Source: an uncultured Rivularia sp.
GTDB taxonomy: Bacteria > Cyanobacteriota > Cyanobacteriia > Cyanobacteriales > Nostocaceae
DNA length: 64,000 nucleotides
Direction of reading: 5' to 3'
Assembly: GCA_963665115.1 (NCBI GenBank)
Contig: OY762007.1
Coordinates: 864,001-928,000 of the forward strand
Below, one piece after another: positions 3,029-38,163 of the stretch (position 1 is its first letter; each line of letters starts with the position of its first letter). The translations under genes were made by a program, and so were the position numbers. The notes under the pieces were generated by a model. It had not been told where the DNA came from, made no database searches, and saw only the letters and a program-made list of their open reading frames with translations.

Positions 3029-3217
3029 CAAGATATCAGTTATAGATAAAACCTTAGCACTAAGCTTTCAATTAGAGGAGAATATCAAGCACTAAATTTT
3101 AAGCAAATATTTTTTAAACAAAAATATAAAATGCAGTTGTATATGTGTAATTTAATTATCTTGACATCTACTATATTCAATGTTTTAAAAGTAATGTTTA
3201 ATATTTTCGGTAACTGT

Positions 3218-4159
3218 ATGAGATTTGGAATTGATATTGGACATAATTGCCCACCCGACACCGGAGAAAACGGAATAAAATACGAAGACAATTTAACATT
3301 GGATGTCGGGAATAGAGTAATGGGTAAATTGAAAGATTTAGGACATCAAGTAGTAAATTGTAAGCCAGCAAAATCTAGTAGTGTAGGAAATTCTCTCCGT
3401 CAAAGATGCGCGACAGCAAATGAAAGTAAAGTAGATATTTTTGTTTCCATACATTTTAATACTTTTAACGGCTTTGCTAACGGTACAGAAGTATTTTCTA
3501 TTAGCGACACGGGTAAAAAAATATCCAAGTCAGTATTAGATGAAATTGTTAAAATGGGATTTTTCAATCGCGGTGTAAAAAATGGTTCCCATTTATTTGT
3601 TTTGAAAAATACAAATATGCCTGCAATTTTAGTAGAATGTTGCTTTCTTGATTCTGCAAAAGACATGAAGTTATTTAGTTCAGAATCAATGGCAAATGCT
3701 ATTGTTAAAGGTTTGGCAGGTAAATTACCTTCTACTCCAGTTATCTCCGTTCCCGATGAAACATCAAATCCGGATGTATCTGTAATTAGATTACAAAAAA
3801 CTTTGAATCGTCTCAGAATGACCGATTACACCGGCAAACCTTTAGATGAAGATAATGAAATTGGGCCAGCAACAGCATCCACAATCAAGAGATTTCAAGA
3901 AATAGTTGATATTCAACAAACAGGCATTATTGGTAACACTACATGGAGCGCAATTAATCAAGTTTTAGCAAAACCAGTAATCAGAAAAAATCATGCCGGT
4001 GGTATAGTGATGAAATATTTACAATACCGTGTGGGTGCCGAAATCGACGGTATATATGGCTTATTTACAGAAGCTGCAATTCAACAATTTCAAAGATCAA
4101 ATGGTTTGTATGCTGATGGAATTGTTGGTAATCTAACTTGGCGTAAATTTATTGGGTAA
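3218..4159 (+). CDS. N-acetylmuramoyl-L-alanine amidase (Amidase_3) with C-terminal peptidoglycan-binding domains
   Basis: IDIGH, SIHFN, NGTEVF and PAILVECCF motifs; PG_binding_1-like repeats (LQKTLNRL; DGIYGLFTEAAIQQFQRSNGLYADGIVG). Start at ATG 3218 (MRFGIDIGH) preferred over 3131. Confidence 0.9.
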   Translation: MRFGIDIGHNCPPDTGENGIKYEDNLTLDVGNRVMGKLKDLGHQVVNCKPAKSSSVGNSLRQRCATANESKVDIFVSIHFNTFNGFANGTEVFSISDTGKKISKSVLDEIVKMGFFNRGVKNGSHLFVLKNTNMPAILVECCFLDSAKDMKLFSSESMANAIVKGLAGKLPSTPVISVPDETSNPDVSVIRLQKTLNRLRMTDYTGKPLDEDNEIGPATASTIKRFQEIVDIQQTGIIGNTTWSAINQVLAKPVIRKNHAGGIVMKYLQYRVGAEIDGIYGLFTEAAIQQFQRSNGLYADGIVGNLTWRKFIG

Positions 4160-12327: not shown

Positions 12328-14170
12328 TTAACTTACCTGCCCTACTTCATTTTGCATTTGATGATATTTCCATAACTTACCGCGTTGTTGTAGTAAGTCT
12401 TGGTATTTTCCTTGCTCGACAATATATCCTCCCTCCAACACAACTACCTTATCGGCTTTAGCTATTGTAGAAAGCCTATGAGCAATAGCAATAACTGTTC
12501 TACCTACAGAAAGTTTTTCTAAAGATTCCTGAATCAAGCGTTCCGATACAGAATCCAAAGCGCTGGTAGCTTCATCCAAAATCAAAATCTGGGGGGTCGC
12601 GAAGTAATGCACGCGCTATGGCTATCCGCTGTCTCTGCCCTCCAGATAATCTGACTCCGCGATCGCCAAGTTGGGTATCGAAGCCTTGAGGCATATCTTC
12701 AATGAATTCTAGTGCATTAGCAAGCCGAGCAGCTTCTTTAATTTCCGCTTCGGTAGCGTCGAGGGTACCGTAAGCAATGTTATTCCAAACAGAAGTATTG
12801 AAAATAAACGTATCTTGACTAACAACAGCCATGTTTTTTCGCAGCGAGTAGATATCAATCTCTTTTAAATCCACTCCATCAATATAAATGTGCCCTTGTG
12901 TTGGATCGTAAAATCGAGGAATCAAATCGGCGAGGGTTGTTTTCCCAGCCCCAGACGCTCCCACCAAAGCAGTTGTTTTTCCCTTTTCAAGCGTAAGGGT
13001 AATATTGTGTAACACTAAATTGGTTGGTTCGTACCCAAAATCAACAGATACTATATCAATAGAACGATTTAACTGCTCAAACTCAGTAGAACCGTTTTGG
13101 AAGTAAGCTTGGTTATCGCTTTCTAAGAGTTGTTTAACATTATCCATCGAACCGTTCAAGGTACTAAGGAAAGCTATCGTTCCATTGATATCTTGAATGC
13201 TGGGTACAACGCGCATCAGAACAAAGAAAAATGTCAATAATGATGCAACTTGTAAGGTAAATACTGTAAAGGAAAGAATAATTAAACCGATAATAGCAGT
13301 AGTTGCAATAGCTGAAGCTATTGGCTTTACTAAAGTCCAAGCCTTTGCAACTTTTATGGAAGCGTTCAACAATTGACCGCTAACGCTGTAAAAACGCTGA
13401 CGTTCAAAGTCTTGCGTACCCGATGCGTGAACCGTGCGGATACCGTTAATAAACTCCGTAGCTGTTGAATGAAAAGCACCGTTAGCATTAGAAATACCAA
13501 AACTCGATTCTCGAACGCGAGCATTGAGCGTTGAAAGTCCTACACCTAACAGTGCAAATAGCAACACTGAAACAATTGAAAGCTGCCATGAAATTACAAA
13601 CATGGTGATAAAGTAAACAGCGACTGCCATGCCTCTGATTATCACAAAAGCAACACCACCGAAGCCTTGTTTTAATCTCTCAATTTCAGTGGTGATTGTA
13701 TTTATCAGTTCGCCGGAACGAGTTTTGACAAAGTAACTTAACGGTAATGCTTGTAAATGTTCAAACATCCGCTTACGCAAGCGATCTGCAAGGTTCAGTT
13801 GTGCTGATTCTGTATAGATCGAACTGAAGTAATCAAATATGGAGCGCAGCCAAGTACTTAACAATATTAAGATTGATATTCTATACATACGGCTGGTTGC
13901 GGAAGTTTTAATTCCCAGTATCCAGATATCAAACCAAGCAACACCTGTTTGAACTGGTTCCGCATCGGCTGCATTCGTTAAGCTTTGTAAAAAAGTTAGC
14001 AAAAAACCAATACTAAAACCTTCAAAAGCTGCTGCTAATATCGAAAAAACTATAGCAAAAATAGTAACTTTGCGAAAGTGCTTAAATTCTCGCAGCACTA
14101 AATAATTATTCTTCCAGAACTTGCTAGCTTTAAATAAGTTGCTTAATGGCTGGTATATTTTTGAATGCAT
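12328..14170 (-). CDS. hepA: Heterocyst differentiation ABC transporter HepA; +1 frameshift at G-run 12591-12596
   Basis: ABC membrane domain plus NBD ([22 protein letters not shown]). Removing one base joins RDP to [13 protein letters not shown]. Lies downstream of hepC. Confidence 0.88.
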
Positions 14171-16207: not shown

Positions 16208-18443
16208 CTATTCTTCCACGGCTGCTTTCAATGCTAATTGCTGTTGCTTCACGTTGGGGACGTAGCTGTAGCCAGTTTTTGAAACTCCATTTGCGACAAC
16301 CCCAAGTAAATTTAATTTACCCAGCATGGCTGTAGCTTGTGCGAGTTGTGTGCGAGTAACTCCTCCAATACTTGCTACCATAACTACGCCACGACAAGTT
16401 GATGCAGTGAGTAAAGCATCTACTAAACCAAGAACTGAAGCAGCGTCCAAGATGACTAAATCGTAGCTTTCTTCAAAGGCGCTCATTAATTCTTCCATGC
16501 GAGGAGAGCTTAATAGATTCGCAGGGTCCTCTGGAACTGGCCCTGCGGTTAAAATATCTATATAAGATGAGCCTGAAGATTGAAGAGTTATCTGGTTAGG
16601 TAAAGCTACATCGCTTGTCAGCAGAGTAGAAAGTCCTTGTTCGTTGGGCAGATTTAGATGTTTGTGTACGCTGGGATCTCGTAAATTCGCATCAATTAAT
16701 AGTACCTTTTTATGCAGACGAGCAGCACTCATTGCTAAACCTAAAGCCAAGGCTGATTTACCTTCATCGGGTAATGCCGACGTTATCATTAAAGATTTGA
16801 AGGCGGAAACAGAATTTAGTAATTCTATGTTTTTATAAATTAGGTCGAGTGATTCCCAGCGCGGTGGCGATTGCAATACCTGAATCGTCCAGGGAGCAAG
16901 CACTTCTGGCTTCCCAAAAGGTAGTTTAAACACCGATTCCTTAGTTTTAGCAACAGGTAATTTAGGAGTTGTTCCTAAAAGCGGAATCGCAAATTGTTTC
17001 TCTAATTCGGCAGTAGTGCGAACTGCATCGTCTCCTGCTTCCCTCGCGAAAGCCGCGATACCTCCTAACATTAAACCAACTACTCCACCTAATAGCAGGT
17101 TTTGTTGCAGGTTAGGGCCTAAAGAATCTCCTTCCTGGGGTTCTTCTACTACTTCCCAGTTAAATCCGCCTTTGTCAAGTTCTTGCTCTACTTTTTGTTC
17201 CGCTGTCAATAACTCCTGGAAGCGTTTTCGGCTGCGATCTACCTGGGGTTGTAAACGATTGTACTCAGCTAGCAAACGAGGAAATTTGGTCAGTTCTTGC
17301 TGTAGCTGCTGTTCTTTTTCTGCCAAACTTTGGTCGCGTGCGCGTAAAGCTAAAAGGTTTGTTTGGGTTTCTACTAAGGTGCTAGCAAGGTTGAGATCCG
17401 TTTGGGAAAGCTGTCCTTGACTGAGTAATTCACCAGTATTTACATTTTTTGCATCAATATTACTACCTCCCAAAGCTCGCCCTACTTCTTGTTGTAGTAG
17501 CTGCTTTTGCTCTGTAAGCTGTTCCTTGAGCTTTAACACATCGGGATGTTCGGCTGTAAAACGTAGATTTGCTTGAGCGATCGCAAGTTCGGTTGTTTGG
17601 ATTTCGTTAAGCAAAGACTGGTAGCGACTTGATTGACTCAAACGAGAAGAAACAAGCGCTTTTTGGGGAGTGCGTTTTAATTGTTTTTGTAATGAATCTA
17701 GGCGTGCTTGAGCTTCTTTATATTGGTTGTGAGTTGTGCGTCGTTCTTGTTGAATATTATTTAAAGCAGTTTCATAAGCTTGAGCTTGTGTTTGGGGGGT
17801 CTGTTAAATTTTGAGAGTTGCGAAACCTTAACAACTGAAATTCAGCTTTGTTTAACTCATCTGTTACCTTCTTTTTCTGTTCTCTAATTACTTTTAGACC
17901 ATTTCTTAAACGCTTTTTCTGCTGTTCTTCGTTGAAATCGAGATAAACTTCCCGTATGGCTTCTAATACTCTTTGAGTTTTGTTCGCGTCTTTAGCTGTA
18001 TACTCAACTTGAACAATTTTAGTTGCAGCGTCATCGTCTCTTGACCTTAATTTCTTTAAAGCCAAAGAACTTTTTATCTCTTTTACGGTAATTTCCGGGT
18101 ATTCGGGCTTTAGTTTTTCAACTGCTTGTTTAATAAGTGAAGACTTACCCATCAATTCTAATTGGGTATCCATATCTATCTTCACATTAGAGTCGGTAAA
18201 CTCATTTTTATCTAGCCCATTTCCTTCTGCTTTTCCCTGATAGTTTGGCTCCACCAACAGTTCCATTGAACTTTTAAAACTGGGCGGGGTTCTACGATAC
18301 ACATAATAACCCGCACCGACTGAAGCCAAAAATACTATCAAAAACCAAGGAAATCGCCGGATTAATACCGCAAACAGCTGCCCGTAACCCGGTTCTGAAT
18401 CAGCAGCTGGATTTACATGGGGACTTAGACTCGTTTGCATCAC
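16208..18443 (-). CDS. Wzc-like polysaccharide co-polymerase/tyrosine autokinase; +1 frameshift at G-run 17794-17799
   Basis: N-terminal Wzz TM, coiled coil, second TM and SALPDEGKS / LLIDANLR P-loop domain. The two ORFs join in frame after removing one base (...LTDPQTQAQAYETAL...SRLSQSSRY). Confidence 0.88.
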
Positions 18444-27166: not shown

Positions 27167-27832
27167 AAAAACTGCCTCTAATTTTTTTTAAGGTAGATGA
27201 ATGAATAGTTCTCTTATGATTCAGATTAAGAGAAATTTTTATTTTCTCAGTATATAATCTAACCGTATTTTTACTTGATTTTGTAAAGACGAGATAAATA
27301 TAGCTGTTTTGTCTGTAAAAAAATGAAAAAGCTTGCTTTGCTATAAAATCGCGATTCAAGACTTTTGATGTTGCCAGATTAAAAATCACAAAATTACCTT
27401 TATCTACTTCTACAAAGCTAAGTGTAAATAAAGTTATATAAAGGATTTTTGATATATCAAAAATATAGAAAAAGAATCTATTAATTGACAATATTTTTTC
27501 TGTATTGCTTATCTAAAGAGTTATTATATCAAGTCCGGATAATTACGTATTATTCTCTGACAAAAATTAAAAAACTAAATTGATTGTCTGTACTAAGCCT
27601 CGTTTCAAAGAGATTTAGCGCTAATTTCATACCTATACTTCAGCTAGGTGCCATCCTTGAAGAATAATCTGGCAGGTTAAACAACTTAATATTTACTCCT
27701 CGCTCCTATTACAGACAAGCCATGAAGTAGAATTCTTATATTGATTGCAAAAGCTTCTAGTGCTTTAGTTTCTCTGTGTCATAGATTCGCGATTTATTAA
27801 GCCTGCACAAACTATGTTGTAAAAGAAAACAG

Positions 27833-27863: not shown

Positions 27864-28076
27864 ATTCACTCTTGAATATCTGGTAATAAACAACGAATAA
27901 TCAAAGAAAACAGTGAATTAATCTAGCTTGCTCAGGAGAGTAATATTACAGAATGTCTTTAAATATTTAAAGTATTAAAAGATACTTTACTATCCGTGCC
28001 AGCCTTTTTTATGTTGAATTTGGTTTTATCGTACTCGGCATATCAAACCTAAAAATTAATCAGCGCGGATGCGATA

Positions 28077-28372
28077 TAAGTAATTAAACAAAATTAATTA
28101 CACATTGTCATTGCGAGTGGAACGAAGTGAAATGAAGCATTCACCGAAGGTGTGGATCATCGCGACACTTTGAGATTACTTCGCGCAGCGAATAATGACA
28201 CAATTAATTTTGCAGACCCACTTATAAGTAATTAAACAAAATTAATTACACATTGTCATTGCGAGTTGAACGGAGTGAAACGAAGCATTCACCGAAGGTG
28301 TGGATCATCGCAAGGGTTGGGATTACTTCGCGCAGCGAATAATGACGGTAAATATTTTTGTTCACCTACTTA
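28077..28372. mobile_element. Tandem pair of 148-bp MITE-like elements with an internal GTCATTGCGAG...AATGAC palindrome
   Basis: Units 28077-28224 and 28225-28372. Each starts TAAGTAATTAAACAAAATTAATTA and ends in an imperfect inverted copy ...CACTTA / ...TACTTA. Confidence 0.75.
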
Positions 28373-28479
28373 GAATTGCATCCGCGCTTAATATGTAAAT
28401 CAATCTGTTTGTAATACAAATATATTATTGAAGAGCCTGCTATTAATTATTTATTAGCCGCATATTGTATGTAATCCTC

Positions 28480-28804
28480 GGGCACATTGATTTTGCCGGG
28501 TAAATTATTCGTAGTAGTTGATTGCATAAATTCTGAAAGGTTAGTTTTTCCCGTAACCTTCGGGAGACGTTATGTATAACGTCTCTACAACCCAGCAGAA
28601 TTATTGTGGGCAAGTACTAGTACTTGGGCAAATTGATTTTGTAAGGTTCGTAGTGAGGACTTCAGTCGTCTAATTTAGGGTTAAAGCCGCTACGTAGAAC
28701 CTTTGTTAGCCTTTATAACTGATGACGGTAAAATAGTGGATCGCATTAAGATGATTCATTTATTCCCAAAAAAATATAGAGACGCGATATATCGCGTCTC
28801 TACA
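28480..28804. repeat. Cluster of degenerate MITE/REP-like elements
   Basis: ggca(c/a)attgattttg left ends at about 28491 and 28627; aaggttcgtagt...gaacctt hairpin at 28643-28703 (relative at 38434-38499); two GAGACG..CGTCTCTACA hairpins. Confidence 0.6.
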
Positions 28805-28855
28805 ACTTTTCAGAATTAATAAAATAGATTACTAGTAGCGTTAGGGCATCAATTT

Positions 28856-31040
28856 TTATTGCTCTATTACACTTGTTTTTTGAAATAAGGTATCGCATTT
28901 GTTGTCAACAACAACGCAAATGCTGCTAAGTGCTTGCTGATAATTATCCATATCGTCTTTTTCCAGGGAAATTTTAGCCGCTTTTTGCAAATCTTCTATT
29001 GCTTGCTGACGATATGCATTGGATTCTCCTCCGCCATATTGTGCTAGTTCGTAGCGAACTAAACCCCGCTTTAAATACACTTTTGGTAGTTTAGAATTCA
29101 GCTGTAATGCTTGATTAAAATCTGTAAGAGCTTTTTTATATTCTTGCTCGAAGTTACTGCTGTATTGAGCTAATTGATAGCGGACTAAGCCTCTTTGATA
29201 GAAAGCTTCTGGTCTAGAGGAATTGATTTGTAAGGCTCGATTAAAGTCCTCAATTGCTCTTAAATAATCTTTCTGAGAATCACCGCTGAATTTTGCTATT
29301 TGAGAACGGACGATGCCTCGTCTAATGTAGGCTTCTACTTCGTCACGGTCAATTCTTAATGCCTGATTGTAGTCATCAATTGCCAACTTATATTCTTTGT
29401 CAGGGTCGCTGCTATATTCGGCAAGCATATAACGAACGTTACCACGATTGACAAGAGCTTTGATTGCGTTTGGATTTAATTTAAGAGCATGAGTATAATC
29501 TGTAAGGGCTGCTTCATATTCTTTTAGGTTATAGTGTGAATTGCCGCGATTGACGTAAGCTTTCGGACTGTCGGGATTTTGTTGTATTGCTTGAGCAAAA
29601 TTAGTAATGGCTTCTTCGTATTTCTTCCCTTTGTATGCAGCACGACCTTCTTTGTAATAATCTGTAAAGCTGCTTTTATTATCGACTGGTTTGGAACTTA
29701 TTAAAGTTTGTTGAGCGTATTGGTTTTCTTCAACTTTGGATGTTGTAAATTTAGTAACTATATCTAAATAACCCAATGTCAAGAAGCCGAGCAAACATAA
29801 AACGAGTGGATAAAATTTTGGCTTATTGTTTGGCTGATAGTAAGAAATCTTTCTACCAACTGGCGAAGGATGCTTCGGAGTCACGTATCTTGATGTGGCT
29901 ACCGTTGTAGCAGTCCTTCTTCTTGGGGTTGTAGTAGTACGTCGGCGATTCGCTCTGGGACGCGGCTTTAAGTGTTTCTTGCTGGCAACATCTTGAATTG
30001 ATGGAAAAGGATCTCTTCCACCCAATTTTGCACTACGTTCGCACCAAGGACATTTATGTAGGTGGTTGCTGTAAAGATGTTGGGGATTTTTCTGACAAGT
30101 ACGCAGGGCATCTTCTGCTTCAGCTAAAGCCAACAGCCATGTTTGAGCGTTCGGACGAATATTCGGGTTGTTATGGCCATCTTCAAAACAACGTATAAAA
30201 AGCTGTTGCAAAGTGGGATGAAGAATATCCCAAGATGGTGCAATAGGTGTTGGACTATAAGGTACGTGCCGATTCACACTGTAGGTAAAGTGCCCATTCG
30301 CAATACGGGCTTCATATGGTGGCGGTTCGCCTACCAAATGGTAAATTCCGGAAAATGGATGAGTACCTTCCATCAACAGCTGGAATATCAGTACTCCTAA
30401 ACCAAATAAGTCATGGGGAGTAGCGCGATCGTACTCGGAAAATGTTTTGTTTTGTAGTTCTGGGGGGGTAAATTCGGGTTTACCTACGGGAGTACGATAA
30501 ACAATATTAGTTTTTGGATCGCGGACTTGAAACGAATCGGTGTCCACAATTGTCACTAATGCCGTATCGCTAACTAAAATATTCGATTCGTTAACATCAC
30601 CAACGCAATATCCAGATTGATGTAAAGCAGCAAACGCCGCAGCCAAATTACGAGCAGTGCGTATGAGGTACTGATAGTTAAACAAAGGACAGTGTTGACG
30701 GCGAGTCCTTGGGTTATAAAAATCGATTACCGGACGCATCCCCCGAATGCGCGGCATCGTAAAACCAATAATATTATTACTACCGTCTGCGGCCCCGAAT
30801 TAGTTCGGAAGGCCAAGCAATAGAAATATGCCCTAAAGATGCTGTCGGATTTTCCGGTGGGTTAAGAACCATCACTTCCAGCTTGCTAGCCTTTTCTGCG
30901 TCAGGCTTATGGTAGACTTTGGCGACGGTTTCTGCATCTGAGGGTACTGTGTAGATGCACGCTTCACCACCACGCCCCAAGCTGACGTGGAGGTTGATCG
31001 GAACAATTTTTTGACTGGGAAGACAGTGTAGTACCTGCAT
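28856..31040 (-). CDS. Ser/Thr kinase (TerY-P triad/YegI-like) with Cys/His motif, TM helix and C-terminal TPRs; +1 frameshift at 30793-30796
   Basis: LGRGGEACIY..AKVYH (N-lobe, ORF 30780..31040) joins GDVNESNILV, VDTDSFQ, FTPPELQ and DLFGLG..GTHPF; followed by CPWC, hydrophobic FYPLVLCLLGFLTLGYL and TPRs (AYVNRGN, AYIRRG). Confidence 0.88.
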
Positions 31041-31108
31041 TTTTAAATTACAATGACTGTTGTTTAAATTTGACTGCGGTTCGATAGTATCGCTAATAAC
31101 TAATAAAT

Positions 31109-31891
31109 TTATGAATCGCTTAATGCTGCTATTATTAAAGTTAGATCGTCATCGGTACGTTGAGTAATTTTATCCGAACGTAAAAATTTAACTAGTTGTT
31201 CTTTTGCCCCTTTCAACTCTTCGGCATTAGCTACAAAGTCAAATAAAGGTAAGAAAAACGGCTTGTGCGGTAAACCCACAGACATATTTATTGCCAACAT
31301 TTGCAGCCCGTCGGTAAGAAGTGCAATGTTGGTAATACCCTGTCTCCATACGTTTACCTGTACCGAATCTAATGCCGTGGGCGAAGTCAAAAAGCTAGTT
31401 TCATTGATATATTCGCCACTATCGGGAACCGTTAAAGCTGTTAAATTTCCCGCGCTATCTTTAGCCACTGCTACGCCATCTCCTATTTGAGCCACTACAG
31501 CGACTATAGGTGTAGCTACCACAACAATTAAAGTTGTCGATAAATCCTTGGGTGGTCTATTTGAAGCTATCGCTTCTTCCTCAACTGCCGTTTTTGCAGC
31601 TAAGATTGCTTCACTTAATAGCGACTTTGCCGAGTTATCCCGATCTAGGGTTTCTCGATTTATCTGCTTAAGAGATATATTTTCAATCGCTGCTTCGACA
31701 GCAACCATTGCTCCTACCTTTCCCAAGCTAGCACTTCCAGCACCATCTGCTGCGGCTGCCACCAATATATTATCTGGCAACATCTCCCAGTGATGGGCAT
31801 CTTGACAAAGTTGTGAATTCCGAATGTGGCTGGTTCCACAAACTGATGCACCTACTACCCGCCAACGAAGCTGCTGTATTGAACTGTTCAT
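31109..31891 (-). CDS. PP2C-like Ser/Thr phosphatase (YegK-like)
   Basis: GTSH..CQDA, AADGAGSA, QIGDG, LLTDGL and RTDDDLTL motifs. Confidence 0.9.
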   Translation of the reverse strand: MNSSIQQLRWRVVGASVCGTSHIRNSQLCQDAHHWEMLPDNILVAAAADGAGSASLGKVGAMVAVEAAIENISLKQINRETLDRDNSAKSLLSEAILAAKTAVEEEAIASNRPPKDLSTTLIVVVATPIVAVVAQIGDGVAVAKDSAGNLTALTVPDSGEYINETSFLTSPTALDSVQVNVWRQGITNIALLTDGLQMLAINMSVGLPHKPFFLPLFDFVANAEELKGAKEQLVKFLRSDKITQRTDDDLTLIIAALSDS

Positions 31892-31935
31892 ATTAACAAT
31901 GTTTCGGGCTGTTTAATTGCTGTACTTGCACTATA

Positions 31936-32610
31936 TTAAACAGAACCCCAACCGATTGGTGGCAAAGCGACTTGTTCGTCCACTTTTGAATGAGAAACTG
32001 CTGACATACTAGCAGATAACCATACAAACATTTCGACAAAATTCAATCCATTCAGTTTTAAGGGGGTACGCACGGCTAATTGACTTAAGCGCGTCATGTT
32101 AGCATTCTCTACTCCTACGGAGAAAAAAGCAACACGTTTACTTGTTTCGTCACCCTGCAACCGCCGCGATGCCTGCTCTACAGTTTCATCCGGTTCTCCT
32201 TGTGGCTCGCCATCGGTAATCATAAATATCCAAGGACGATAGTAAGCCACTCCGTTAGAGCGGTACTGAGATTTACGTTCTTGAATCAAGTCTAAAGATT
32301 TGTGAATGCCAGCACCCATAGTAGTTAATCCTTGGGCTGTTAATATAGGCGGAGTAAATTGGTCGGCTGTCACAAAATCTTGTACTACGTTTATATTGCT
32401 ATCAAAGGTAACTATAGATACTTCGACTCTTCTTGATGCTAATGGATTTTTAGTTAATTCATCCTTAAAACTAAGCAAGCCTTGATTCAATGCTTCTATT
32501 GGCGCTCCTTGCATCGAGCCAGATGTATCTAATAACAGTACGCATGGACAACGAGGTTCGGGGTTCTCCGCGAAATCAACTACTTCGTCTAGTCTTAAGG
32601 TATCTGACAT
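31936..32610 (-). CDS. vWA domain protein (TerY/YegL-like)
   Basis: NPEPRCPCVLLLDTSGSM (MIDAS) and YYRPWIFMITDGEP. Confidence 0.92.
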   Translation of the reverse strand: MSDTLRLDEVVDFAENPEPRCPCVLLLDTSGSMQGAPIEALNQGLLSFKDELTKNPLASRRVEVSIVTFDSNINVVQDFVTADQFTPPILTAQGLTTMGAGIHKSLDLIQERKSQYRSNGVAYYRPWIFMITDGEPQGEPDETVEQASRRLQGDETSKRVAFFSVGVENANMTRLSQLAVRTPLKLNGLNFVEMFVWLSASMSAVSHSKVDEQVALPPIGWGSV

Positions 32611-33214
32611 AACTTTCGGTGTTATATTGAAGTTCTAAGGTTTGATTTTCGGTTGTACAAAGTATATAGTTTAAAGCCCCAAAGTAGCCATAGTTGTGGC
32701 ACTTTAGACAAAGGATATTTTCATAAAGGTTCGCACATTACTAATGCATTATTACTTATAAAGTTCGATATATCTTGACTATTATTTAGCTAAATCATAA
32801 GCAATTTTGTGGATTTTGGATGGCTAATTGTTAATGGCTTTATATACATAATATATCTAGAATACAATAAATTCGTACTTATGCATACGTGGAAACTTAA
32901 AGATTAGATGTAGAAAAAACAAATTATTGGATAAAAAAGTGAAGGCTTGAAAAACATATCTTACTAACAAGAGAATTGATTAACTAATATCCTCCACATG
33001 AATAGTAACTTTTAGTTTAATGTATTGAAGATACGCATATTCTCAAAACAAATGTAACAATTAGGCTGTGATGTAATATTTTTAGCTGGTAATATGTCCA
33101 TGTCAGAAGAGGGCAGATTGATTCATACAGAATATCCACTATGTATATACTTAATTAGATTCAATTGATGTTTACAAATATTTTATCTCCTACAACTGTA
33201 ATTCTCTATCCTAT

Positions 33215-34649
33215 ATGAATAATTTTGCGACTTTCACAAAACTGCCTCCCTTAAGTTTGTTAAGACACTTATCTAGTTGCTTCGAGAACACTTGTTTGCA
33301 AGTTCAAAGTCATTCGGTTAACTGGTGGATTTACTTAGAAGAAGGAAAAATCGCTTATGCGACTCATTCTATAGAACCTTTCGATCGACTAGAACGTCAT
33401 TTACGTCGGCTTTCGGTTCAAATTCCCGCTTTAACAAGTGAAATTCGCGTGCAGTTACGCATGATGTTTGAACCAGATTCGCAGCGTTTGTCAGACAGAA
33501 ATGTAGAAGATACATCATATTCAATATCCTCGGCTCAGCCTTCAGATTATCAAGCAATTTGCTGGCTAATTAGTCAAAAATATTTGAATCCAACACAAGC
33601 AGCTATATTAATTCAAGAGTTAGTTAAAGAAGTAATTGAATCATTTTTATTAATAAAAAAAGGTACATACGAATTTCATAAACATTTAAATTTATCCCCG
33701 AAAATTTGCCGACTTGATGCCGAAAAACTATTATCATTTTCTCAGGATAGATTACAAGCTTGGCATAATCTTAATCCTCAAATTACTTCTCCATTTCAAC
33801 GTCCCTATCTATGGATTAATACAAAAACTCAAATACAGAAAATATCGGAAGTTCAGCCGAATTTAGTCAATTGGATGAAGGGTTTTAGTTTGCGTCATCT
33901 TGCTGTAATTATGAATCAAGATGAACTTCAATTAGCACGAAGCTTATACCCCCATATCCAAAGTGGAGCAATTTTATTACACGAACCCGATCCACCATTT
34001 GATAAGCTACCTAAAACTGATGTTCTGTTATCTTATGCTCCTACAAAAATAAGGCAAGGTAATGTTAAAGAAGTAGCTGATACAAGTCATTTAAGAGAAG
34101 CTTTACCAGAAAATACTAAGCAAAAACAAAGCGTCCCCCTTCCAAAGCAGAGAATACCTGTTAATAAGGTAACAATTGCTCCAGTTACCCAACTTTCTTC
34201 CCCTTCTACAGAAAAAGTTGAAAAAGAAATAAAAAAAGATAACATTAAACCTGCTTCTCCTACCGAAACCTTACCACCACAAAAAGTTTACAAAATTGTT
34301 TCTGTAGATGATAGTCCCAGTAATGCTCAAAGAAATTAGTCGTTTTTTAGAAGACGAAAGTTTCTCTGTTGTGACTATAGACAATCCTCTTAAAGCTGTA
34401 ATGTCAGTTATTCGACATCAGCCAGATTTAATTTTGTTAGATTTAAACATGGAAGGAATTGATGGTTATGAATTGTGCCGAATAATACGAAACAACTCTA
34501 AATTCAAGAATACTCCCATAGTTATGGTTACGGGAAGTAAAGGATTTGTAGACAAAGTAAAGGCGAGATTAGTAGGAGCTAGCGGTTATTTAACTAAACC
34601 TTTTACTCGTGCCGATTTACTCAAAATGGTATTTATGCATTTAACTTGA
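33215..34649 (+). CDS. PatA-family response regulator (PATAN + REC); +1 frameshift at 34316-34318
   Basis: PATAN-like N-terminus (WWIYLEEGKIAYATHS, DYQAICWL, ITSPFQRPY). The REC domain is split at VSVDDSP|VMLKEI...PDLILLDLNM...YLTKPF. Confidence 0.85.
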
Positions 34650-35641: not shown

Positions 35642-38081
35642 ATGCGTATATCTTTAAATTGGTTGCAGGAACTTGTAGAGTTAAAATTAAGTCCGGAAGA
35701 CCTAGCAGAAACACTGACGATGGCGGGGTTTGAAGTCGAAGAGATTGAAGACCGTCGCACTTGGGCTGATGGGGTTGTAATCGGGAAAGTGAAAAGCCGC
35801 GAACAGCACCCGAATGCTGATAAATTAAGCATTTGTCAGGTTGATGTAGGCAAAGGTGAAAATTTAAATATTGTCTGCGGCGCTGCTAATGTTCGTGCAG
35901 ATATATATGTGCCAGTTGCAACCGTAGGTACTTACTTACCAAACAAAGATTTGAAAATTAAACCTGCTAAACTACGCGGGGTACCTTCCCAAGGAATGAT
36001 TTGTTCTTTGCAAGAATTGGGTTTACCTACCGATGTAGATGGAATTCATATTTTTTCTGGGGAAAGCATCCAAATAGGTGATGATGTTCGTCCGCTATTG
36101 GGTTTGGACGATGTGATTTTAGATGTTACCGCTACTGCAAATCGCGCCGATGCTTTGAGTATGGTAGGGATAGCGCGGGAAGTCGCGGCGATAACTGGGG
36201 GTGAACTGAAAATTGCTCAGCCAGAAGAAATATCGGTTCCTCAAGGTGCGGGAAATTTAAGTATAGAAGTTGATGAGACTAAAGCTTGTCCGGCATACAT
36301 TGGAACGGCGATCGCACAAGTTAAAATTGCTCCATCTCCCGACTGGTTGCAGCAACGGTTATTAGCTGCGGGAGTTCGACCAATCAGCAATATAGTTGAT
36401 ATTACTAACTATGTCATGTTGGAATGGGGACAACCGTTACACGCATTTGACCGCACGCGACTGCAAAGTATTGCTGGTAGTGAGGATATTAGTATTGGAG
36501 TGAGGTTTGCGAGTAACGGTGAATCGTTTAAAACACTGGATGGAAAAAACCGCAACTTATCAACTCAGAATTTATTGATTACCGTTAACAATAAACCCGT
36601 GGCTTTAGCGGGAGTCATGGGTGGAGAGGAAAGCGAAGTTCATGACGGCACCGAAAACTTAGTTTTAGAAGCAGCTTTGTTTGACAATGCTGTGATTCGT
36701 CGTTCATCTCGCAGCGTTGGTTTGAGAAGCGAATCCTCTACCAGATACGAACGAGGAGTAAATCACGCCGAGTTGGAAATCGCTTGTCGTCGTGCAATAT
36801 CATTGATAGTAGAAATTGCTGGAGGTACTTTAGCAACTCAAGAGACTTCCGATACCCGCCCCGATGCTTCAGCTTGGACTCGTTCGATTGAATTGCGTTT
36901 GGATCGAGTTAATCAGATACTTGGGCCTGTAGACTTAGGGGAAGAAGAAACCGGAGAAATAAAAGGGGGAGATGTTGAGCGGATTTTAACTGCTTTGGGA
37001 TGTCGGTTAACTGTTTCTGGTGATGGAACATGGGCTGTTAACGTACCTGCATATCGCTACCGTGACTTAGAGCGAGAAATTGATTTAATCGAAGAAATCG
37101 CGCGTTTGTACGGTTACGATAACCTTTGCGATACTTTACCGGAAAAGCCAGAAGTTGGTTATTTACCAACAGATCAAGAATTAATTCGCAAACTACGAGC
37201 CGCATTCCGCGCAACCGGATTAACCGAATTAATGCACTACTCCTTGGTAAAACCGGGAGAAGAGAGACAGGTGGTTTTAAGTAACCCATTGTTTGCAGAA
37301 TATTCAGCATTGCGAACCGATTTGATATCCGGTTTAATTGCTGCATTTCAATACAACATCGAACAAGGAAACGGTGCGCTTAACGGTTTTGAAATCGGAC
37401 GAATTTTCTGGGAAGAAGAAGAAGGTTTTCAAGAAGCAGAAACCGTAGGAGGAATCATCGGAGGTGATATTACTTCCAGCAAGTGGATGAGCGGAGGTAG
37501 TCAAAAATCCATGAGTTGGTTTGAAGCCAAAGGTGTTTTAGAAAGCGTCTTTAAAGTCATGGGATTGCAGGTAGAATATCAGCCAGATAGACGTGACGAT
37601 CGCCTACATCCAGGGCGTACTGCTTCGCTGTGGGTGGGAGGAAACAGCTTAGGGGTATTCGGACAAGTACATCCCCAAATTCGCAGCGAAAAAGATTTAC
37701 CCGATGATATTTATGTATTTCAACTGAGCTTAGAAGTACTTTTAGATGCGATTGACGAAGACGATGTATTGACACCCAAATTCAAAACATTCTCTACCTA
37801 TCCGCCATCCGATCGAGATATAGCCTTCTTCGCACCCGTTAACTTAACAGTCGCCGACATCGAAAAAGCGATTACGAAAGCCGGTAAAAGTTTATTAGAT
37901 TCCGTCGAGTTATTTGACGAATATCAGGGCAAAAACGTACCCGAAGGACAAAGAAGCTTAGCATTTCGGTTAATTTATCGTTTAGGCGATCGCACTCTTA
38001 CCGATGCAGATGTCGAACCAGTTTCACCAAAAAGTTCGAGATACTTTGGTGGAAAAATTTGGGGTAAGTCTCAGGAGTTAA
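35642..38081 (+). CDS. pheT: Phenylalanine--tRNA ligase beta subunit; +1 frameshift at 38022-38024
   Basis: [23 protein letters not shown] and [10 protein letters not shown]. The corrected end is [21 protein letters not shown] (TAA 38079-38081). Confidence 0.95.
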
Positions 38082-38163
38082 TCAATTATCAATTATCAAT
38101 TATCAATGACCTAAATGATTGATAATTGATAATTGTTCATTGTTCACTGATAATTGAAAAATC

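Follow-up and report, generated by a model that had tools for sequence, protein, structure and literature searches.

Within a 64,000-nucleotide stretch of DNA from an uncultured Rivularia sp. (the window, to which all positions refer), we identified three genes at the head of the HEP island, encoding a vWA protein, a PP2C phosphatase and a Ser/Thr kinase, which judging from their sequences are a YegL/PphC/YegI-type (TerY-P) triad. We consider with moderate confidence that the triad is a membrane phosphorylation switch, on in maturing heterocysts, which helps to regulate envelope building, and we infer that the deposition of the envelope may come under its control.

The three genes are on the minus strand. 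The first (31936-32610) encodes a TerY/YegL-like vWA protein of 224 aa (PF00092, E 2.5e-12), the second (31109-31891) a PphC/YegK-like PP2C phosphatase of 260 aa (PF13672, E 3.7e-56) and the third (28856-31040) a YegI-type kinase of about 727 aa when a one-base error is allowed for; their counterparts in Anabaena PCC 7120 are alr2822, alr2823 and alr2824, respectively. A first reading of the sequence without database searches (here the sequence-only reading) had proposed a TerY-P-like triad, and this was borne out by the identities to the E. coli proteins, which were 56% to YegL, 37% to PphC and 34% (over 322 aa) to YegI. The MIDAS of the vWA protein is intact (D28-x-S30-x-S32, T96 and D133) and invariant in 33 aligned homologs, while D49 of the PP2C aligned with D46 of PphC, described as the residue changed in the D46N catalytic mutant. 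The co-oriented order vWA, PP2C, kinase was found in all 69 named loci with sufficient flank, so that the features of the TerY-P/YegL-PphC-YegI group, namely a MIDAS-bearing vWA protein, a PphC-type PP2C, a kinase with YegI motifs and a zinc-ribbon motif, and the gene order, are all present in the sequence. A predicted complex of the kinase domain, the PP2C and the vWA protein scored 0.79, compared with 0.74 in a control with the kinase replaced, and carries no weight either way.

The kinase reading frame is in two pieces (30780-31040 and 28856-30757, both on the minus strand) with matches to Pkinase and TPR families, and the split comes down to one surplus base at 30793. This base was absent from the contigs of runs X1, X3 and X5, three of the four sequencing runs compared, while those of run X2 end precisely at 30793 and give no call; in all 6 same-genus loci examined the kinase is one ORF of 725-731 aa. 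A true frameshift or a pseudogene was ruled out by these independent contigs and intact ORFs, and the frameshift is an assembly error. The kinase has one copy in its own genome.

The kinase is not of the canonical Hanks type, as the HRD and DFG motifs are replaced by VGDVNESN and DTDS. The YegI-type catalytic motifs GDVNESN and DTDS (30533-30601, minus strand) stand where HRD and DFG would be, and residues G147, D148, N150-N153 and D166-S169 were invariant in 88 of 88 distinct orthologs, with the final Ser of DTDS aligned with Ser-162, the autophosphorylation site of YegI. The predicted fold still matches protein kinases in Foldseek. Further elements, all on the minus strand, follow the kinase domain in the frameshift-corrected protein; the first four had been pointed out by the sequence-only reading. 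A predicted zinc ribbon, C-x5-H-x8-C-x2-C (30041-30097), was kept in all 88 distinct orthologs; the motif is a family feature and is shared by E. coli YegI. The basic, Thr/Pro-rich linker (29816-30004; 63 aa with 10 R, 7 K, 9 T and 9 P) is weakly conserved, with 6% of its columns reaching at least 95% conservation, and has a pLDDT below 50 at residues 370-410 of the structure model. A hydrophobic helix (29747-29809; residues 411-431 in the structure model) is the only predicted transmembrane (TM) segment, and lies between the kinase and the TPRs both by hydropathy (Kyte-Doolittle 19-mer maximum of 1.91) and in the model. Six TPR helix pairs, predicted to be periplasmic, were recognised by Pfam TPR families and the structure model (28961-29668), with consensus-TPR superhelices as top Foldseek matches and with dN/dS of 0.02-0.11 in three pairs, indicating purifying selection. 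The only cysteines past the helix are a Cys-x6-Cys pair in the capping region (28895-28918), both invariant in the 88 distinct orthologs, which could possibly form a disulfide.

The kinase is predicted to pass the membrane once, with the kinase domain and zinc ribbon in the cytoplasm and the six-TPR solenoid in the periplasm. Helix hydropathy was at least 1.6 in all 99 family ortholog loci, and the N-side of the helix, towards the kinase, was the more basic in 86 of the 99; this charge bias and the invariant Cys pair are consistent with periplasmic TPRs, and the extracytoplasmic placement of the TPRs foreseen by the sequence-only reading gained support as a prediction. The topology is nevertheless uncertain, because the helix, which terminates in a conserved G-Y-x-D, is short and contains a conserved Asp.

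The earlier idea that the triad had been rebuilt as a receptor-like module was not supported. YegI is already a membrane kinase with a zinc-ribbon motif, 28 of 32 other YegI-type kinases have a hydrophobic helix after the ribbon, and the kinase-TM-TPR layout also occurs in the sister family (f17), alongside a chemotaxis-like cluster. HepA was dropped as a heterocyst marker, as HepA-family genes above the cut-off were present in 5 of 5 f17 genomes; HetR was for this reason taken as the marker, and it was found in none of 4 f17 genomes. As YegI is membrane-bound and the same build exists in the HetR-less f17, this receptor-like layout did not originate with heterocysts. The triad is older than heterocysts and was recruited through relocation and new regulation, not through new architecture; what is novel in the heterocyst-formers is its fixation, relocation and developmental induction. 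The phylogeny behind this is a quick tree only.

All 131 family genomes searched have a full-length kinase, which is single-copy in 130 and accompanied by an additional partial match in the other. Its distribution outside the family is patchy: it was found in 34 of 192 further genomes from the class and in 35 of 143 from the order. The kinase precedes hepA by 9.8-18.7 kb on the same strand in 109 of the 131, and the remaining 22 include 9 with rfbF next, 1 abutting the far end of the island, 5 detached and 3 at a contig edge. The suggested synteny survey therefore placed the triad with the HEP island in 119 of the 124 family genomes that could be called, a count which leaves out the 3 contig-edge genomes and 4 genomes that were not retrieved. 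Next after the triad comes rfbF in 62 of 63 named loci with at least 4 kb of flank. At locus L024 and in 5 sampled genomes, an intact triad sits elsewhere than at the head of the island.

One of the genomes, G162 (98% complete), keeps both triad and island, and nifK was not found in it; the triad dN/dS there is 0.07-0.25, slightly above that of its island genes (0.06-0.12). Such purifying selection would suit a heterocyst-induced sensor of envelope stress or quality control that is not needed to make the polysaccharide layer and becomes important only under stress, for example from desiccation, metals or an oxygen leak. TerY-P triads have been proposed as metal or stress switches, and genetic definitions of the island leave alr2822-24 out. 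We regard this possibility as doubtful: the kinase is present in every family genome searched, and the induction of the orthologs tracks the developmental programme in unstressed step-down cultures.

In the window, the HEP island (4493-27166, minus strand) comprises rfbF, lhgO, epimerases, glycosyltransferases, wzc, hepC, hepA and an O-antigen ligase family gene, with profile scores of 836.6 bits for HepA (cut-off 725), 299.9 for HepC (140) and 468.7 for glucose-1-P cytidylyltransferase (300). The triad had been placed directly upstream of the HEP operon; the shared strand stands, but direct adjacency does not, as kinase and island are separated by 1690 bp, a gap that contains repeats with up to 79 genome matches and that measures about 0.3-1.0 kb in other genera. 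A terminator-like hairpin of 13 pairs plus a T-run (28775-28804, minus strand) begins 52 bp past the kinase stop, within a repeat having several genome copies; as sole evidence it is weak, because the gap holds 2 such sites compared with 1.1 in shuffles. Sigma-70-like sites in the gap were no more frequent than by chance (6 vs 7.7 expected). Owing to the 1.69 kb gap and the hairpin, co-transcription of triad and island is unsupported, and the triad is probably a transcript separate from the island.

Orthology to alr2822-alr2824 was established by gene order, six matching gene sizes and an 18-nt upstream motif, and the PP2C is 67% identical to BAB74522.1 (alr2823); the Anabaena arrangement ahead of the HEP island that the sequence-only reading had named was hence correct. 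The nitrogen step-down response that had been suggested as a check is already published, with strong co-induction of alr2822-24 and the hep genes. In those data, which come from whole filaments and have baselines of 1-3 reads, alr2822-24 rise 225- to 460-fold by 12 h (RPKM 0.15 to 39.5, 0.20 to 44.5 and 0.025 to 11.7, respectively), alr2825 goes from 0.067 to 39.4, hetP rises 10-fold and the divergent all2821 2.1-fold. Both sigma-factor mutant tables list alr2822-24 as down together with hep genes, that is, dependent on SigC and SigE. RNA contigs of relatives were rejected as expression evidence, being contigs only and covering intergenic DNA as well.

Two published definitions give the island as the 17 genes alr2825-alr2841 and leave the triad out, while two other publications set the border at alr2822 or alr2823. 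In position and in induction the triad goes with the island, and it falls outside the alr2825-alr2841 definition. HetZ peaks have been described for alr2825-41; tags of the alr2822-24 region and all2821 were not found in the text supplements of the HetZ paper, and the ChIP datasets may use other tags. The Fox- mutants of a 2005 transposon study reportedly mapped to island genes, with no such mutant in alr2822-24. In the literature searched, which included few subscription papers, we found no functional description, mutant, localisation or substrate data for alr2822-24, and the papers found to name them label them 'hypothetical' or 'hep island protein'; the NCBI name for the kinase family is 'tetratricopeptide repeat protein'.

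Upstream of the triad, a putative control region (32611-33214, no strand assigned) is common to it and a divergent patA-like gene. Conserved elements lie there some 60, 270 and 300 bp ahead of the vWA start, and conserved 8-mers occur in 78-79 of 92 upstream regions. A DIF1 (TCCGGA) promoter was rejected, the exact motif being present in 4 of 81 upstream regions vs 2.2 in shuffles. A degenerate DIF1 with at most 2 mismatches, mostly TACGWA, recurs at a fixed offset in 42 of 67 regions and is a lead only.

The divergent gene (33215-34649, plus strand) encodes a PatA-family regulator (DUF4388 and receiver), the counterpart of all2821; an assembly error of one base, at 34316, breaks its ORF in two. 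It was present in 64 of 64 named loci with sufficient flank and accompanies all 5 detached triads; one genus (g68) has lost it and kept the triad-island link. The link of the patA-like gene to the triad is older than the island link. Perhaps, then, the triad works with this regulator in polar or septal envelope signalling during differentiation, and the island is a neighbour with the same timing. In f17 the patA-like gene and the PP2C-kinase pair occur together, with cheW and an MCP gene next to them; in genome G221 the pair lies between the patA-like gene and cheA. Nonetheless, such a partnership seems unlikely, given that all2821 rises only 2-fold vs over 200-fold for the triad and that G162, G091 and G072 have no patA-like neighbour.

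TerY-P-like modules with an OB-fold kinase are described as anti-phage, others are described as travelling with restriction systems, and RNase III genes sit between the partners in some non-heterocyst triads; an anti-phage system guarding the differentiating cell was hence considered. We judge it very improbable: no PADLOC model matched the vWA protein or the PP2C and the kinase had only weak generic matches, the C-terminus is a TM helix with TPRs and no OB-fold, and the neighbours are hep and patA-like genes with no nucleases among them. Moreover, the triad is single-copy, family-wide and slowly evolving, TPRs included, unlike patchy defence genes.

Under the preferred reading of a membrane switch, a conserved protein in the periplasm, in the simplest case a component of the machinery that exports or polymerises the polysaccharide, would bind the TPRs and cluster the kinase. 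The clustered kinase would autophosphorylate the DTDS serine, as YegI does, and then act on envelope proteins by phosphorylating them; it would be reset by the PP2C, while the vWA protein would tune the cycle via its metal site. In favour of this reading are the family membership, the conservation, the linkage to the island and the co-induction of the orthologs. Counting against it are the island definitions that omit the triad, the HetZ peaks described for alr2825-41, the probably separate transcript, the intact triads found away from the island head, the persistence of the triad in G162 (where the island is also kept) and the greater age of the patA-like link. A more specific version, to which we attach only tentative belief, is that a TerY-P stress or defence triad was turned into an envelope checkpoint when heterocysts first arose. 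In the ancestor of the heterocyst-formers, the vWA, PP2C and TPR receptor kinase genes would have come to lie at the head of the polysaccharide cluster, under the control of differentiation sigma factors. The TPRs, in the periplasm, would sense and signal how the growing Hep layer stands, and phosphorylation would gate the export machinery before deposition of the glycolipid layer. On that account a core heterocyst regulator would have been overlooked because it lacks the HRD and DFG motifs, and the TerY-P triad family would gain a natural stimulus and substrate.

As recently as 2026, a paper described the regulation of the Hep layer as poorly understood. Here a kinase and phosphatase pair is family-wide, has strongly induced orthologs, sits at the island head and is available in a genetically tractable model strain, concealed by annotations such as 'hypothetical' and 'TPR protein'. 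The case also illustrates how a stress-type module of patchy distribution came to be fixed in a lineage of multicellular organisms.

PknB and PrkC are single-pass receptor kinases with a cytoplasmic kinase, a linker, one helix and an outside repeat domain; the Rivularia kinase differs from them in its non-canonical YegI motifs, its zinc ribbon, TPRs instead of PASTA repeats and a vWA partner gene. TerY-P triads, as described, consist of a TerY-like vWA protein, a PP2C and a kinase-zinc ribbon fusion (PMC11090510, PMC4978471). The Rivularia triad has the same three members, including the zinc-ribbon motif on the kinase. It differs from the TerY-P triads described in that it is family-wide and single-copy, lacks an OB-fold and has no neighbouring genes of ter, restriction, CoCoNuT or type VII secretion systems. 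The Hep phospho-regulators HepK, HepN, HepS, HenR, Alr3423 and All4160 differ in kind from the triad, since they are reported to comprise histidine kinases, a Ser/Thr kinase and a partner-switching module (PMC13555669); this set resembles the proposed role in that Ser/Thr phosphorylation acts on Hep layer formation, and HenR/Alr3423/All4160 are the described precedent for phosphorylation control of Hep synthesis. E. coli YegI is described as an inner-membrane kinase with two TM helices and both termini cytoplasmic, which PphC dephosphorylates in vitro (10.1101/819920, 10.1101/303594), and what stimulates it and what it phosphorylates are listed by its authors among the open questions. By sequence, the Rivularia triad is like YegL/PphC/YegI in gene order, zinc-ribbon motif, VGDxxxxS/N loop, D-S/T-D in place of DFG and a kinase predicted to be membrane-bound. 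Unlike YegI as described, its kinase has one predicted helix and a predicted outside TPR solenoid, and the triad's Anabaena orthologs show strong induction as part of a defined developmental programme.

We identified three co-oriented genes on the minus strand, as the sequence-only reading had claimed: a vWA gene (31936-32610), a PP2C gene (31109-31891) and a kinase gene with TPRs (28856-31040). The kinase ORF is split by one surplus base at 30793, which is absent from the contigs of sequencing runs X1, X3 and X5; contigs of X2 end exactly at this break and hence give no reading there. One-base breaks in lhgO (26070) and in the divergent patA-like neighbour (34316) are also gone in X1, X3 and X5, X2 agreeing with the window, and all three breaks are assembly errors. 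The kinase is a single ORF of 725-731 aa in 6/6 loci of the same genus, and an intact ortholog (L001, 97% identical) stood in for the split kinase in later analyses. Probably further assembly errors are the short hepA (12572-14170; 532 aa, profile positions 1-529 of 610), wzc spread over two ORFs (16208-18443) and pheT with 826 aa vs 811 aa in two relatives (35642-38122). Some genomes of the genus carry a second, distant triad, its kinase ~40% identical and its C-termini different (L017-L020).

The triad lies upstream of the heterocyst polysaccharide (HEP) island and on its strand, but not directly as had been read, since 1690 bp separate the kinase stop from rfbF. The downstream cluster has HepA, HepC and glucose-1-P cytidylyltransferase matches above their NCBIfam cut-offs. 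The gap holds a terminator-like hairpin 52 bp past the kinase stop, short palindromic repeats that match up to 79 sites in the genome and occupy part of the gap (28007-28810), and an exact TCCGGA at 27534-27539, ~370 bp upstream of rfbF; exact copies were seen at -368 to -374 in 6/73 rfbF upstream regions. This TCCGGA is possibly a HetZ-type promoter of the island. Given the gap with its repeats, hairpin and TCCGGA, the triad here probably forms its own transcript. Between vWA and patA-like, two elements are strongly conserved (32860-32930 and 32660-32680); one overlaps a predicted FurC box that did not pass an EMSA test in Anabaena, and the proximal one is absent from a locus with a detached triad (L099). 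An N-acetylmuramoyl-L-alanine amidase gene with peptidoglycan-binding domains (3131-4159) converges on the island's far end.

The full-length kinase was found in 131/131 genomes (65 genera) of the window's own family of heterocyst-formers. Outside it the distribution is patchy, with 35/143 genomes elsewhere in the order (E 1e-95) and 34/192 elsewhere in the class (E 1e-45). Among the family genomes, which are kin and whose counts are not independent events, 109 of 131 have the kinase on the strand of hepA and 9.8-18.7 kb ahead of it. Of the other 22, 18 were examined: rfbF is next in 9, the locus runs out at a contig edge in 3, the triad is detached with intact ORFs in 5, and in 1 it meets the far end of the island tail-to-tail. 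In 76 named loci (Rivularia, Calothrix, Scytonema, Stigonema, Nostoc, Dolichospermum and others), those with enough flank had vWA and PP2C ahead of the kinase (69/69), patA-like ahead of the triad (64/64) and rfbF next after the kinase (62/63); the linkage to HEP extends to other Nostocales. Genome G162 kept both triad and island, and a search of it did not find nifK; one heterocyst-less relative reportedly retains its hep cluster. In G084 (L097), whose kinase is the deepest family branch of a quick tree, triad, rfbF, hepC and nifK are present and the search found no HepA above cut-off.

The equivalence with alr2822-24 of Anabaena PCC 7120 proposed in the sequence-only reading agrees with gene sizes, a published box and an alignment of the PP2C protein. 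BAB74522.1, a 260-aa PP2C which we take to be alr2823, falls in the same cluster as the ortholog and shares 67% identity with the PP2C of the window. The lengths tabulated for all2821 to alr2826 in Flaherty 2011 (1474, 775, 883, 2299, 874, 1315), with 100 nt subtracted as presumed padding, become 1374, 675, 783, 2199, 774 and 1215; in close relatives, patA-like, vWA, PP2C, kinase, rfbF and lhgO have these sizes. An 18-nt box published 286 nt ahead of alr2822 recurs exactly ~282-289 nt upstream of vWA in 2/4 loci tested.

In the Flaherty 2011 data, from whole filaments with baselines of 1-3 reads, alr2822, alr2823 and alr2824 rise 262-, 225- and 461-fold within 12 h of step-down, and island genes alr2825 and alr2826 589- and 387-fold; neighbours all2821, asr2819 and hetP rise just 2.1-, 3.9- and 10-fold. 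The nitrogen step-down induction proposed as a check is present in these data, with its boundary between all2821 and alr2822. Signalling together with the PatA-like protein, whose gene lies ahead of the triad and outside this boundary, is an unlikely role. In a SigC/SigE study, alr2822-24 are reduced in both mutant tables, as are hep genes, and in a cse mutant they drop together with the island; published accounts variously place the island border at alr2825, alr2823 or alr2822. A literature survey that lacked several key papers, some supplements and the 2005 mutagenesis paper returned no functional account of alr2822-24. We propose, at about even chances, that the triad is a switch regulating envelope building in maturing heterocysts; its ligand, dimerisation, substrates and vWA role, the steps beyond sequence and expression, we infer. 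A heterocyst-induced stress sensor dispensable for the layer is an alternative that we consider rather doubtful, if marginally less so than the PatA-like partnership.

The structure model of the kinase (mean pLDDT 86.2, pTM 0.55, 37 sequences) runs from kinase, ribbon and disordered linker through one helix (residues 411-431) to six TPR pairs and a cap, with Foldseek matches to TPR superhelices and protein kinases. The single hydrophobic helix noticed earlier is likewise predicted, with hydropathy of at least 1.6 in 99/99 family loci and the kinase side more basic in 86/99 (some genomes counted twice), and a one-pass topology is predicted. The sole cysteines past the helix in aligned orthologs are one invariant pair, which would fit a periplasmic disulfide. 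Pairwise dN/dS of the triad is 0.02-0.10 within the genus, similar to island genes, and the low TPR values suggest that the TPRs bind a fixed self partner rather than a changing foreign one; this speaks against phage defence, the role of another TerY-P form, which we regard as very improbable here.

In a HetR-less sister family (f17), the kinase is present in 7/7 genomes. The 6 loci with enough flank show the order patA-like, PP2C, kinase-TM-TPR beside chemotaxis-type genes, their kinases 46-49% identical over the full length, and neither vWA nor hep genes were found there. The vWA gene is located elsewhere in 5/5 genomes, HepA-family genes lie away from the kinase in 5/5, and in one genome a HEP-like cluster occurs distant from both kinase and vWA. 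HetR was found in 0/4 genomes, which makes heterocyst formation unlikely in f17. The two families are joined at SH-aLRT 99 in a quick tree without bootstrap and with its root untested. Kinases of more remote triads carry WD40, PQQ, GUN4 or other TPR domains at their C-termini; a hydrophobic helix follows the ribbon in 28/32 non-family or second-copy kinases, three of the four lacking it being second-copy triads of the window's genus. From the sister-family loci and these helices, four traits are older than heterocysts: anchoring in the membrane, the TPR domain, a patA-like neighbour and a HEP-like cluster. This does not support a triad rebuilt as a receptor-like kinase module; linkage, fixation and induction came later. 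Other arrangements were also observed. The lone f17 vWA gene is flanked by an SNF2 helicase pair on one side and a polysaccharide deacetylase on the other (L139:7018-14153), and in G221 patA-like and cheA flank a PP2C-kinase pair within a chemotaxis-like cluster (L117:1802-13035). In another family, two or three genes are inserted between PP2C and kinase (L123:2580-9904, L124:2024-9781), one with an RNase III domain, plus a NACHT helical domain in L124.

Aligned with E. coli counterparts, vWA is 56% identical to YegL (E 3e-78), PP2C 37% to PphC (E 4e-41) and the kinase 34% to YegI over 322 aa (E 4e-56). The kinase carries the YegI signature (VGDVNESN, DTDS replacing HRD, DFG), and residues matching the YegI catalytic ones are invariant in 88/88 distinct orthologs. 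According to preprints (10.1101/819920, 10.1101/303594), the YegI form is active, prefers Mn2+, shows second-order activation kinetics and requires autophosphorylation at the serine following DSD, and PphC dephosphorylates YegI. The Cys/His cluster is common to the window kinase and YegI, and by sequence match it is the zinc ribbon reported for TerY-P kinases in PMC11090510 and PMC4978471. By all four sequence features tested, the genes are a member of the TerY-P/Yeg triads; the window triad differs from the anti-phage TerY-P form and is not that form.
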